Origin: Hormiphora californensis
Lineage: Eukaryota; Animalia; Ctenophora
Reading direction: 5' to 3'
NCBI GenBank assembly: GCA_020137815.1
Contig: CM035354.1
Span: forward strand, 6,200,001-6,264,000
Length of the DNA stretch: 64,000 nt
Shown: in pieces, positions 16,412-25,000 of the stretch
How the letters are laid out: each line of letters starts with the position of its first letter
Position numbering within the stretch: the first letter of the stretch is position 1
Position numbers and translations under genes: made by a program
Notes under the pieces: generated by a model
Told to the model about the DNA's origin: nothing
What the model saw: the letters and a program-made list of their open reading frames with translations, nothing else
Database searches by the model: none

Positions 16412-19044
16412 TCACACATTTGTGTCATTAAAGTTATCGTCATCACTTTCACTGGTCGAGGTGGCGTATCTATTCTCCGTTACCTCCCGTATCTCTAACG
16501 CTGAGGAAGTGAGGCACTGATGGCACGGTCATAGCGGCTGTGTATGTTGTGGTTTTACAAATATAGTTTCAAAAATTAGTATTGGGCTGTTGAGTTAGTC
16601 TGGGAGAGCAAAACAAACCTTGCTAGGTCTTTATAGTAGCCGGGTTAGTCGTCAGTGGTCTTATTTGTCGTGACGTCGTGTTTGTTTTGCGGTCGTGTCG
16701 CCTTTTATTTTTGTCACGTTCCTTTCTCTGTCGTCTTACCCCTGGTGTTGTAATTCTGTTTGTCAGTGATCATCTGGGGTTTGGTTTTATTTCAGTTGAG
16801 TCGAAATGTCTGTCACAATTCAGGACTTACGTTTTCGGAACTTGCCCCGCTTCAATTCTTCATAGTTTTCACTGTTTAGAATATCCAACATAACTTTATG
16901 TAGGAACTTGTATTGCGACTGAGGGAGAGGAAATAAGTTAGTGGGGAGGGGTGCTACAATTTCATAATCTCACCCCTCTCAGTGCGAGCCGGGAGGATGA
17001 TATCAGTCGACCAGAGTCCAGACCTGTACACCTCTACCTCTCTAATCTTGCTCAGTTCTACCCCTCTCTACTTACCACGGTGAAAACCATCTTCCTCCGC
17101 TGTTGTCGAAGGGCACCGACCATCCCCAGAATATCAAGGTCATCCTTATTACACAGCCGATCCAGACTGTTCCAGATGCCAATGAAGGCCCCCGTTCTGC
17201 CCGTACCGGCGCTACAGTGACACACCATGGGTCCCATCTTGGGCCTTATCGAGTCGACATGTCGGACGTTGTAGATAAAACTGACGAACTCAACGGTTCG
17301 TTTTGGCACGTCAAAGTCGGGCCAGCCCGTATAATTGAACATGAATAGTTCCCTTAGTCCCTCCTGCAGTGATTGGGATGTGTCAGTTGTGTTCATGGGA
17401 AATTGAGATGAATCTGAAGACTTTTTAACAGTGAATGTCTAATAAACTAGTTGAGTAGTGAGTACCAGCCCTTACTCAAAAACAAAAACTATAGGTATTG
17501 TTACCTCCTGAGTGCTGCGGATCTCAAAGGTGTAAATAGTGAAGCTATCAGTTTCCTGTTCGTTTATCCTACAAACTACAATATCTCCATATTGCTTGCT
17601 CCTCTCTCCTGCACCTGGCCAGTATACAATACTCTTCAGCTTTCCATTCTCCTCTATCTTCGTTAGGTTAGTTATCATCGTCGACTGGGAGTTTAGTGTT
17701 AGTGGTTACTGGGTAGTACTAAGTTGTAGTTAGTTTAGTGTTAGTAGAGACAAGCTGTTTGGAAGTTTTTTACAGCCTAGCTTGTATACTAAGTTTCAAA
17801 GGTGAGGAAATTGATAGGTAAAGAGGTCTTGTATATTGAGGAGAATCAATGCATCGAAAGTTACCTTTTGTTCCCAGATCATTCTCCAATAATCGTCAGC
17901 AGTCTCGTATTTAGGTGCCTGGGTAGCGATGAATGCTCGGGGTTTGTGATAACCATGGATAAAGCTAGCGTTGATGTAGTCAGAGTAGGGATCGTTCACG
18001 TTCATAGTCAGCTTCACTCTTGAGTGGTCGACTGGGGGAAAACAATCGTGATCAGATACTTGTGTGTAACAAAACCAGACAAGATGAGACATTTCAAGGG
18101 GAGTGAGAATGATATGAGCTAGTTACCCAGCTGCTCCAAAGAGCACTGGGTATGATTCCATGGTTCCAAGTGATGGCAACTGCTCTCATCAAATCAAACC
18201 AAATGGATCCAAGTATCATGTACTCACATGGTATAATATTCTTGTATCTATTTTTAGTATCATTCTCCGGTATTGATCCATTATAACAGGTGTTATTGTC
18301 ATCAAATGAGTCAAATGTAGTAAACTCCTGCTTCAACTCCTTGTCATCATTCCTTGTCAGCAAATCGTAGTACCTGGGACACAACACAATATTAAAAAGA
18401 ACTAAGGAACTTATATCACTGGGAGGTGGTGTGCTTACAACCCAAACTATTGTGCTCAAAATCTCCAAAATCAAAATCCCGTGACATGTAAAAATCTGAA
18501 CACTATGCTTTTGGTATCTCACCACCGCTACCACGTTATTTACACAGGATCTGAAGGGTTTAGGTCACTAACTATAAACCATATATATACCCCGAACACG
18601 ATAACTAATTACTAAACGGGTACTAAACAATTGTACCCACGAGACCAACGAGTCATTAGTCTGGTATTAGATCTAACGTGCTTCATTTTATACCGCTTTA
18701 TTGAATATTAACACGTGAGAGAGAGATATAGAAACCTCACCAGGGATACACACAATGATCGAACGTTACAACAAACCAAACTTACTCCGCAAATTTAGTA
18801 ATTTTAACAACAACACCCTCCCTTTCAAATTCATCGTCCTGAAATCATGCAATTCTGAAATTACCCAACTCCATTTGTTCCTTACTTGCTGAAGTCGCTT
18901 ATGTGAACCGGCCGGGACATGAGAGGAGCCTTCTTTTCACTCTCTTGGAGTTTCAGACTCACTTTGGTCATCTTCACCCCTCCCTCTTCCATCGCCACTG
19001 GGTTCTCGATGGGCCCAACGAACATCTTCCGGGGTCCACTAACC
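16412..19044 (-). CDS. RPTP cytoplasmic phosphatase exons (one classical PTP domain, ending ...NDTNV*)
   Basis: [85 protein letters not shown]. The last exon 16500-16412 joins in phase 1 and ends in the class I PDZ motif T-N-V. Confidence 0.95.
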
Positions 19045-22000: not shown

Positions 22001-25000
22001 CACGTGGTTTAATACTGTTCAGCTCCATCACGTTTACACTGTCTGTTACTATAATTTACTACTGTCACTGGTTCTGCTAAGCTGTTCAGTATGCTATTGA
22101 CTACTACTGTCACTACTACTATATCCCGTCACTATTCTGCTCAGCAGGACTGAAAACATCACGTACTATGTCTGGTATAAACCTTGAAAAGCAACAAGAG
22201 TTAGGCTTTATGAAACAACAAAAGCTGGTTGGTTTTGTATGAAATCTTCGGATAATTTCCCGTCCTACTGTCAATGTCACATGACGTGTAAGATAGAAAT
22301 AAAGCAGACTGGGGAATCAAATATAGGACCTTCAATGAAATGTCACAAGTCAGCGTGTTGTAAACTAGTAACACAGCTAATATAACTATGTGTGTCACAC
22401 ATTGTAACAGCTCTGTTTAACCTGTTTTCATTATTGTCATCTGTACCAGGGTACCCAGGATTCTCAATCACCACATTCCCAGAGGCATCCTCTACCTTAT
22501 TATTTAACTCAATATCTCGTCTTTGTTGCATGCTGTTGTCAGTGTGTTTGTTTGTTGTCAGGGGGGGGCAGCAAGGTAGAGTACATTTGGCAAGGGGGTA
22601 TAATGTATATACAGCTAGAAACAGTGTGTACAGTGAAACAAACCAACAAACAAACAAACAAATAACCATGTAGGTATCAGGTAGCTAACCATGTGGTCAT
22701 CAGGTGTTTTAAACAGCCCTGTGGCATAATCAATATAATGCCAGGAACCAGGTTGAGATTGTGAGATGGTGGGAGGGGTTATCACTTACTTGTACGAGGC
22801 ATCCTTCTTCTTCTTCCATTGCACCACAATGAACAGGAAGAGGAGGATAACAGCAATTCCCAGAACGATAACGCAGATGATAACCGTCGTTAACACCGCT
22901 GAGTCTTCTTCTGTGGTGGCGGAAGATGTAACTAGTACGGGTTAGTAACTTGGGAGAGGGAGAGGTGGGGGATAGATAGAGAGATAGACAGAGTGCGTTC
23001 TACACATCCTAAAAACGATGGTAGGTAGGGAGGTATATTTAACTAACCATTACAAGCGACAAAGTCAGTCAGATAACCATCATTACAAGTGTAGACTGCT
23101 TCCGGGACATCCTCCGTCACTTCGAACCCGCTATTACAGGTCGCAGTGATGGTCTGCTCATGTTTCAGGTATTCTAACTCAATGTTACTGTGTATGTTCA
23201 GGTCGTCCAATACTGTCTTTGTGTACTTTGAAAGTGAACACGTATCTAGGAGGGGAGAGAGAGTTATTGATTGGCTGGATTGTTACTTGCTTCTTGAGTC
23301 GCTTGACACTGTTTCCATGTTACTTTAACTTACTTTATCCCAAACACAACAACTCAGTTACAACTAAGTAAGTTAAAACTCAGTAGTACTTACTGTAACA
23401 TTCGGGGTAACTGGGGGTATCACAGCGTACAGCAGAGGCAGCACCATAGGGAACAGAATGTCCGGAACTACATGTGATTGAGATGAAGCTAGAAGGACTG
23501 ATCCGAGATCCGGAGGGTGGGCTATATGTTGCGTCGGCAGTGAGTGTGGCAACTGTACACACTTGAGAGGCATCAATACAATCACTAGCCGAGTCTGAAC
23601 CAGTATTCATGGTAGTTTTAGATCCACTACAGCTGATACAGGAGCCTCCTGACCCGAGGGAATAGTGGCCCAGAGAGCATTGTACACACTCCGTAGCAGC
23701 ACTGTTAGCTTCATATCCAGCGGGACACTGGTAACAGTAATCATCCGATGTAACATAACCACTAGCACAGCTAGTAGAAGTGGAACTAGTTGTTGTACCA
23801 GTGGTTAACTGGGTAGTAGCACGTTTCTTGGAGGTAGTGATTGAGAATGTGATTGCAGAACCAGTCTCCATACTGTCCGTGTCGTCAGACAGGATAGTCG
23901 GATCATCCATCTCCGCTGTCTGGACCAGTACAAACGAAGCGGTACTCCAGCGCAACTGAAGTCATCGAAGGTGCAGAAGAGGGAGGTTGTACAAGTCAGA
24001 TAGCCTTCATCCTCCAGGGCTGTTTGAAGGGCTGTACTAATGGCTGACTCCTGGGAGGAGCACCCGGTAACTCCGCTGAGCGTGATGGAAACTGAGGCGT
24101 TTCGCGAATCCGCATCTTCTGCCGCTGTAGGGGAGAAGGGATGTTGTTAGATGTATAGCTTTCTTGTTTAGTTCGAGGTATTTCCTGAGTTTTCTATTTA
24201 GCCAGATTATTTTGAGGGAACATTTCACTGGTATCTAACCTGTACAAGAGGGAGTTGAACCGTCAGGATTGGAGGAGGATGTTAGGGACCAAACACCCGT
24301 ACTGGTATCACATGTATACATCTGAGGGGAGGGGGTGTCAGTACCCTGTCTTTAGTCTCTACACAAAACAATTCTCCTTTTTCAACCTTCTCAACTTTGA
24401 TCCTATTTTACGAGTATATCAAGAGTCTATGACACCCAGCCAAAGCTGCCCCTTTAGACTCACCCTATACCCCCTGTCTCTCAAAGTGTACTTACATCTT
24501 CAGCATCCACCAGGAAATAACCTGCATCACAGGAGTAGTATGCCGCAGTACTGTTCTTATACACCACATCACCATTACTAATAGAGGTCAAATCTCCACA
24601 CGACATGTCGGAAGAAGCTGCAAGGGAAGATGGGGGTTAGTTGTTGTGGTCAAACACAAGAGTATTGCGGTTATACTAGTCCATGATCCATTAGCATGAT
24701 AAAGCCGGGTGAAACCTCTGGTTCAGATTAGAGAACAAGACAATCAAGGTGGATTCATTGTCGAGATAATTCAGGGGAGTGGTTACTTACATTCACAAGT
24801 GACACTAGAATCAGCATCAAAATCTCCACCAGCCAGACACCTTGCTGTGCTGGACCCTACTGCGAAGTAGTTAGTACTGCAGGTCAGGGTGGCATACTCC
24901 AGGAAGTTGGTCTTCTGGGCTGGCAGCCATTCACCATTATCAACACTTGGTAGAGACGAAGTCTTGCAGAATTCTGTGGGATAAAATAATAATAATAGTC

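Follow-up and report, generated by a model that had tools for sequence, protein, structure and literature searches.

This study focused on a minus-strand receptor gene in a stretch of 64,000 nucleotides of the ctenophore Hormiphora californensis (GenBank assembly GCA_020137815.1, contig CM035354.1, positions 6,200,001 to 6,264,000; the whole stretch is called the window), and specifically on the exons that follow its single transmembrane (TM) exon. Behind that exon lies an expressed cassette of alternative ends, of which a short end (tail S) is proven by RNA, an end with a protein tyrosine phosphatase (PTP) domain is supported by homology, and two others (tails A and B) are unlinked. On balance it is probable that one ectodomain and TM segment, RNA-joined to the short tail, is likely also joined to the downstream single-domain PTP and, less often, to tail A or B. 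A preliminary description of the same DNA had proposed three interchangeable tails, A, B and PTP; the alternative ends behind one TM exon were partly borne out, but the candidates number four, and the links of A and B to the TM exon are unproven.

Short tail and tails A and B

The RNA evidence consisted of assembled contigs from four runs, out of nine runs listed, eight of which held part of the stretch. The sole junction seen leaving the TM exon runs from its donor at 22790 to the acceptor at 22532, in one of the four runs. The contig that carries it comprises four exons, then continues unspliced past donor 22422 to 22288, beyond the stop at 22345-22343, which shows tail S to be a fourth cytoplasmic end, RNA-joined to the TM exon. 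Exon 22532 had been taken for an internal exon, a view contradicted by this read-through; the donor at 22422 is weak, with a score of 3.7 against a training tenth percentile of 5.9. Four ectodomain joints were also found in the contigs of the four runs. Tail S contains an NPGY motif, and NPxY motifs bind PTB domains. The C-termini of tails S and B do not show the class I PDZ pattern, and Pfam gave no match in tails S, A or B.

A shared ectodomain and TM segment joined to a unique, enzyme-less 3' exon was found both in this four-exon contig and in a relative. The latter is the ortholog P0165 (1,998 residues). From 43147 to 22789 its matches follow the order of the window exons, and its C-terminal tail of 44 residues has no PTP domain. 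Its contig (L001, 6,978 bases) has a leader-like start ending in TTTTGAG, close to the ctenophore leader end given in passages of PMC8527503, and extends about 900 bases beyond the stop; its 3' region showed no similarity to the tail exons of the window. A search with a stretch of P0165 matched only this contig of its own, apart from a false match (L002). A second ortholog, P0037, ends in a 42-residue tail related to that of P0165, also without a PTP domain, and a query with it against metagenome contigs found no locus.

It might be argued that the model of three tails is exactly right, and that the read-through at 22422 and 21918 represents unfinished pre-mRNA, so that tail S is never mature. 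The read-through contig came from an rRNA-depleted library, and other introns are covered as well (22692-22789 in run X3, and 20590-20815 in runs X1 and X4). However, unspliced 21918 also occurs in an oligo-dT library, where it is the sole form, neighbouring introns are spliced on the same contigs, and in two orthologs the TM segment is followed directly by a short tail that ends the protein. We give this argument very little credence, and take tail S to be a genuine end.

Tail A is encoded by three exons, the joints of which, 21799 to 21625 and 21512 to 21410, were present in RNA from two and three of the four runs, respectively. Its first two exons have a 13-residue repeat in common (1 of 2000 shuffles), it contains two Tyr-Ala-Asn motifs, and the form in which tail S is extended into tail A (S+A) ends in a class I PDZ pattern. 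Tyr-x-Asn motifs bind Grb2-type SH2 domains. Sequence variants were tallied among the rows listed (40 of 85), with six rows set aside (two PTP exons and ectodomain exon 24974), as well as one row in an untranslated region (UTR) and one upstream of 21918. In the last exon of tail A, eight of nine variants fell at codon position 3 and seven of nine were synonymous (expected share 0.20-0.27; P 0.0004-0.002), a count that omits three adjacent changes in an AAC repeat of exon 1, non-synonymous if taken singly; with these included, third-position changes make up 10 of the 13 rows of tail A (P 0.002). The control, four ectodomain exons, had 17 of 19 rows both third-position and synonymous. Upstream of the sole in-frame ATG of tail A, at 21319, all six changes were at the third position (P 0.0014).

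Tail A is, then, under coding constraint. Because codons before the ATG at 21319 are constrained, and that ATG is the first in frame in the assembled tail A RNA, the frame must be fed from upstream, either by splicing of the weak intron 22421-21919 or by a non-AUG start of a nested transcript; a frequently retained intron is favoured. One tail A contig has as its first letters the CAG of a possible acceptor, 22149, the last three letters of which are the same as the end of exon 22532-22422; an assembly branch could lie here, but this is one coincidence noted post hoc. The idea of a spliced leader at about 22150 is unsupported, as the contig begins with genomic letters.

The two exons of tail B were joined (20897 to 20194) in one of the four runs, with 27 letters on the shorter arm. 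RNA cover of exon 20962 amounts to 27 bases, so that failure to see a joint from the TM exon to 20962 is uninformative, and we infer the linkage of tail B to the TM exon weakly. The cover of 20590-20815, in the intron between the tail B exons, came from two oligo-dT runs, and may reflect a retained intron, a long 3' UTR or a repeat; the segment is not repeated elsewhere within the window.

The likely phosphatase end and rival readings

The downstream exons specify one classical PTP domain, which matches PF00102 and keeps KNRY, WPD and the signature HCSAGTGRT (consensus HCSAGxGR(S/T)), with PTPsigma and LAR as the best matches among solved structures. A joint within it, 17076 to 16918, was found in one of the four runs. 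The PTP form ends in a class I PDZ pattern, as had been claimed for it and for tail A, and two matches to the ITIM pattern fall within its structured region. The Q-loop Gln, which in PTP1B (Gln262) places the hydrolytic water, is replaced by Phe (MVFT, compared to MVQT in PTPsigma; 17076-17090, minus strand), a change that bears on rate and not on membership of the PTP domain. The same Phe is found in P0002, P0003 and the repeats of P0001, which are all the ctenophore-type relatives retrieved. Mutation of Gln262 in PTP1B lowered kcat 100-fold and aided trapping, according to extracts of PMC10267100, and since the window protein has Phe at the equivalent position, it is predicted that its PTP likely turns over slowly. 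The common Gln-to-Phe change marks a ctenophore PTP clade whose members may act as slow enzymes or as binders of phosphotyrosine (pTyr). The best match of the window PTP was a model from Pleurobrachia bachei, while the named paralogs come from Bolinopsis. One P. bachei model, P0001, strings together several related PTP domains, which suggests that this clade includes a tandem array.

That the TM exon is linked to the PTP exons is likely, judging from the homolog P0002. P0002 and P0003 (502 residues) contain, in one frame, homologs of the TM exon, the 19044 exon, the PTP exons and the 16500 exon, and end in Thr-Gln-Val. The similarity of P0002 to exon 19044 was reached in 0 of 2000 shuffles, and to the PTP exons it stands at 64-68% in the best pieces. 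As the window holds a single TM exon well matched by P0002 (E 1e-6), PTP exons of this type would most simply join TM exon 22910-22790. With the short end given by RNA and two orthologs, and the PTP end by a homolog, the ectodomain is best read as having ends both with and without the phosphatase. The contrast drawn earlier between a pTyr eraser and enzyme-less forms survives to that extent, but the word eraser must be qualified by the Q-loop Phe.

Several observations weigh against a common set of ends. Neither the TM exon nor exon 22532 was joined to tail A, tail B or the PTP exons in any of the four runs, and the contigs listed contained none of the joints 22422 to 21918, TM to 21918, TM to 20962 or TM to 19044; among the diagnostic junctions proposed in the preliminary description, 22790 to 22532 was therefore seen, and 22790 to 20962 and 22790 to 19044 were not. 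Both contigs over 21918 are unspliced, reaching 22152 and 22112, which also tells against the 22422 to 21918 junction as the main form. The bin depths are accounted for entirely by the listed contigs, with nothing left over for hidden ones in those runs. Tail A contigs, the deepest of the locus, have a depth of 16-21 compared to 3-9 for ectodomain contigs of the same runs, although contig depth is a poor measure, and they start near 22150 like a separate transcript. The short tails of P0165 and P0037 show no significant similarity to exon 22532 (117-295 of 2000 shuffles), and homologs were found for neither tail A nor tail B. P0002 lacks an ectodomain, has 27 unrelated residues before its TM segment, and is identical to the TM of the window at 14 of 32 residues, compared to 23-24 of 32 for P0165 and P0037. 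Given the missing ectodomain and low TM identity, P0002 may be a paralog.

The RNA at 21918 is open to another explanation, in which the receptor has just the short and PTP ends. Tail A, perhaps along with tail B, would then be transcribed separately on the same strand, within the intron between the TM and PTP exons and from a start near 22150. The unspliced tail A contigs stem from two studies, run X1 is uncovered just upstream of them, and nested genes are common in Hormiphora, many of them parallel to the host gene (PMC8527503, in extract). Such a transcript would, however, need a non-AUG start to account for the constrained codons ahead of 21319; moreover, there are no leader letters on the tail A contig ends, and a phase-2 AG at 21918 and a phase-2 GT at 22422 are present. 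We regard this explanation as unlikely, if deserving of attention.

The relatives raise a different question, whether the ectodomain gene encodes an ordinary adhesion protein with a short tail, next to a neighbouring gene that holds the PTP exons and has no ectodomain. The membrane-proximal module had 38 family matches, 11 with TM and tail, and a PTP motif was found in 0 of the 11; both clear orthologs are also without PTP, as P0002 is without ectodomain, and 18016-19323 had no RNA cover in the four runs, a gap that was not counted against the PTP form at exons 19044-18228. Yet P0002 places its homolog of the TM exon directly before that of exon 19044, the window has no second TM exon, and 19044 is a strong phase-2 acceptor, so that two separate genes appear highly improbable. 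No molecule with ectodomain and PTP together was found in any species, in a protein search that took in sequences of up to 2,000 residues and in which a full-length ortholog could not appear, and with the 390-residue Ig exon as query none of 7,992 candidates (684-2,000 residues) matched. Asn-x-Tyr occurs in seven of the 11 TM-bearing family tails (several of them close kin), compared to 1.9 expected (2 of 2000 shuffles), and is also present in tail A and in the last exon of the PTP form.

Gene layout and further features

Between its ATG at 43707 and the end of the TM exon (22910-22790) the gene has 34 exons and 2,348 codons, consistent in phase except at a one-base break (Table 1). It has the hallmarks of a receptor: a predicted signal peptide, an ectodomain and one TM segment. 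Pfam placed Ig, sushi and Eph-like Cys-rich modules outside and the tyrosine phosphatase domain downstream.

Table 1. Features of the receptor gene and its cytoplasmic cassette (window positions)
Feature	Positions	Strand	Evidence
First coding exon, 17 codons	43656..43707	-	predicted signal peptide; position matches hydrophobic N-terminus of P0165
32 ectodomain exons (Ig, sushi, Eph-like Cys-rich), ~2,290 codons	23048..43143	-	phase chain; Pfam; P0165 collinearity; 4 RNA joints
One-base frame break in window copy of 731-base ectodomain exon	23946..23947	-	open frame lost; RNA contigs
Single transmembrane exon, phase-2 end	22790..22910	-	sequence; RNA joints on both sides; sole good P0002 TM match in window
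Tail S, short terminal reading, 62 codons, NPGY, ends HADL	22343..22532	-	RNA joint from TM; unspliced contig; stop
Weak candidate intron, both ends unspliced in covering contigs	21919..22421	-	RNA contigs; donor 3.7, acceptor 0.7
Tail A exon 1	21799..21918	-	donor used in 2/4 runs; acceptor use unseen; RNA reaches upstream to 22152
Tail A exon 2 (ENVY, YAN motifs)	21512..21625	-	both joints in RNA
Tail A last exon (charged run, ENDY/YAN, ends TQL)	21224..21410	-	joint in 3/4 runs; RNA onward to 21130
Tail B exon 1	20897..20962	-	donor used in 1/4 runs; 27 bases covered; candidate acceptor
Tail B last exon (ends DCEL)	20086..20194	-	RNA joint; RNA downstream to 19850
Juxtamembrane exon, PTP form	18886..19044	-	40% identical to P0002 stretch after TM; acceptor rank 3 of 271 AG sites; no RNA cover
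Five exons, one classical PTP domain	16831..18373	-	open frame; PF00102; PTPsigma alignment; one RNA joint
PTP exon coordinates	18373-18228, 18031-17865, 17684-17505, 17363-17076, 16918-16831	-	
Last exon, PTP form (ENRY, ends TNV)	16412..16500	-	resembles P0002 post-PTP stretch, 10 of 2000 shuffles

The phase-2 end of the TM exon and the eight phase-2 acceptors of the preliminary description (22532, 21918, 21625, 21410, 20962, 20194, 19044 and 18373) were confirmed from the sequence, each acceptor being an AG that leads into an open frame when entered in phase 2, as were the stops after NTQL (21226-21224), DCEL (20088-20086) and DTNV (16414-16412, via acceptor 16500). A match in phase is weak by itself, since 23 of 133 YAG sites in the cassette open at least 35 codons upon such entry. 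Splice scores were no basis for excluding sites, as acceptors 21625 and 21410, both proven by RNA, have scores of -6.1 and -4.3. The higher-scoring, unused AG sites 19190, 19233, 22718, 22308 and 20689 were rejected, having short frames only and no RNA support. The first of these has the top AG score of the cassette (13.9) and a GT 48 bases on, forming a symmetric phase-2 mini-exon (19143-19190, minus strand) before 19044, in a region without RNA cover.

The break at 23946/23947 places the first stop at codon 2105, ahead of the TM segment. Because one RNA contig carries an extra base there and homologs align across it (another contig has a loose end), it is likely an assembly error or a null allele. 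Elsewhere in the ectodomain, a tandem duplication of 39 bases at 27201-27270 (minus strand) has copied the end of an exon together with its donor, so that either of two donors could serve in frame.

The exon at 23394-24124 (minus strand), together with P0006-P0047, represents an expanded family of single-exon modules with an alpha/beta domain, a basic KKR site, an Eph-like Cys-rich unit and a sushi domain, in proteins that are apparently from ctenophores. The KKR site may be a furin cut. A fold search with the P0006 model (pLDDT 77; 60-70 in the relevant part) did not identify a SEA domain ahead of this site; the model is an alpha/beta sandwich, with its best match to unrelated phage-type proteins (Z 6.6, rmsd 2.4, 83 aligned).

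Downstream, a gene at 2147-14771 (minus strand) carries a START domain and, with PH-like first exons, is what we take to be a ceramide-transfer-protein-like gene; it is unrelated, so that the PTP exons are not its 5' part. Upstream, a WD40 repeat exon of another gene lies at 61069-61680 (minus strand).

Proposed mechanism and known systems

In the arrangement we envisage, an Ig/sushi/Cys-rich ectodomain of about 2,340 residues plus its anchor would be the common part of all forms, and we infer that a choice of 3' end is made after the TM donor. Tail S would be the default, with the first acceptor, a stop and an early 3' end. If the weak intron 22421-21919 were removed, the protein would continue into tail A and gain its Asn-x-Tyr and Tyr-x-Asn docking motifs and PDZ-type end, whereas a skip of 3.7 kb to the strong acceptor 19044 would yield a receptor phosphatase of about 2,700 residues, with slow turnover predicted. 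The forms without an enzyme would vie with it for a shared ligand, serving as decoys or as scaffolds for adaptors, like TrkB-T1 and TrkB-Shc beside TrkB-FL. As a speculative and rather improbable extension, the Phe-bearing PTP of a four-end locus might be a natural slow substrate trap that reads phosphorylated Asn-x-Tyr of its sibling, tail A, in which case the isoform ratio at a cell contact would set phosphotyrosine signalling without a second gene. Two features of the locus deserve the most attention, namely the Phe in the Q-loop and a tail A transcript that may be independent.

The locus does not fall into a described receptor PTP (RPTP) type. Like LAR-type (R2A) enzymes, its PTP domain best matches PTPsigma and LAR (D1), and it has Ig domains outside; unlike them, it has one PTP domain, followed by a stop, instead of two, sushi and Eph-like Cys-rich modules, and the Q-loop Phe. 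R2A receptors are defined by an ectodomain of Ig and fibronectin-III units with tandem D1-D2 (PMC12598525, in part), and no FN3 family was present among the 13 Pfam hits of P0165. The single domain fits the R3 type, described in excerpts of PMC5604967 as having a fibronectin-III-repeat ectodomain, but the Ig/sushi/Cys-rich ectodomain does not. Ctenophore short-tailed proteins with sushi and Cys-rich units (Bolinopsis XP_063687398.1 and XP_063693301.1) have the membrane-proximal module in common with the window gene, and differ from it in that a phosphatase was present in 0 of 11. In the literature searched (open full texts), no ctenophore receptor PTP with alternative tails was described.

An analogy with paired activating and inhibitory receptors had been suggested, but tails S, A (also as S+A) and B contain no ITIM or ITAM, by an ITAM consensus from bioRxiv 10.1101/2022.03.04.482883 and the general ITIM consensus. 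The Alr1 and Alr6 Ig receptors of Hydractinia are spliced to alternative TM-plus-tail exons, according to parts of the same source, and thus offer another non-bilaterian Ig receptor with alternative cytoplasmic tails; unlike the window locus, the Alr genes exchange TM and tail as a unit, carry ITAMs or ITIMs, and lack an enzyme domain in that account.

The modular tail had been thought to be without precedent in RPTPs, but mouse Ptprk, Ptprm and Ptpru have TM-anchored forms without catalytic domain, nearly all via alternative 3' ends (PMC1431701, in extract). Those forms are, in that extract, rare predictions at the cDNA level, whereas the enzyme-less form of the window looks like a conserved default, and its tail A is a dedicated coding unit of three exons. 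Another parallel is NTRK2, which produces TrkB-FL, TrkB-T1 and TrkB-Shc from unique 3' exons, the short form often being the main one, as stated in passages of PMC10325033. Both loci have one ectodomain and TM segment with unique 3' exons for enzyme, short and docking-site-only forms, those other than the short one being candidates in the window. The enzyme of the window is instead a phosphatase, the ectodomain is unrelated, and there are four candidate ends; where NTRK2 joins the same TM to at least two ends in one species, here the short end was seen joined, and the others as separate spliced pieces. The principle of switching an enzyme on or off in this way is already known, and none is overturned. 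If the proposal is true, the switch sits on an Ig/sushi/Eph-like Cys-rich ectodomain, a kind of receptor phosphatase not found in the literature searched, and the choice between enzyme and decoy by alternative 3' ends, known in vertebrate receptor kinases and a few receptor phosphatases of the mouse, also works in one of the animal lineages that branched off earliest.

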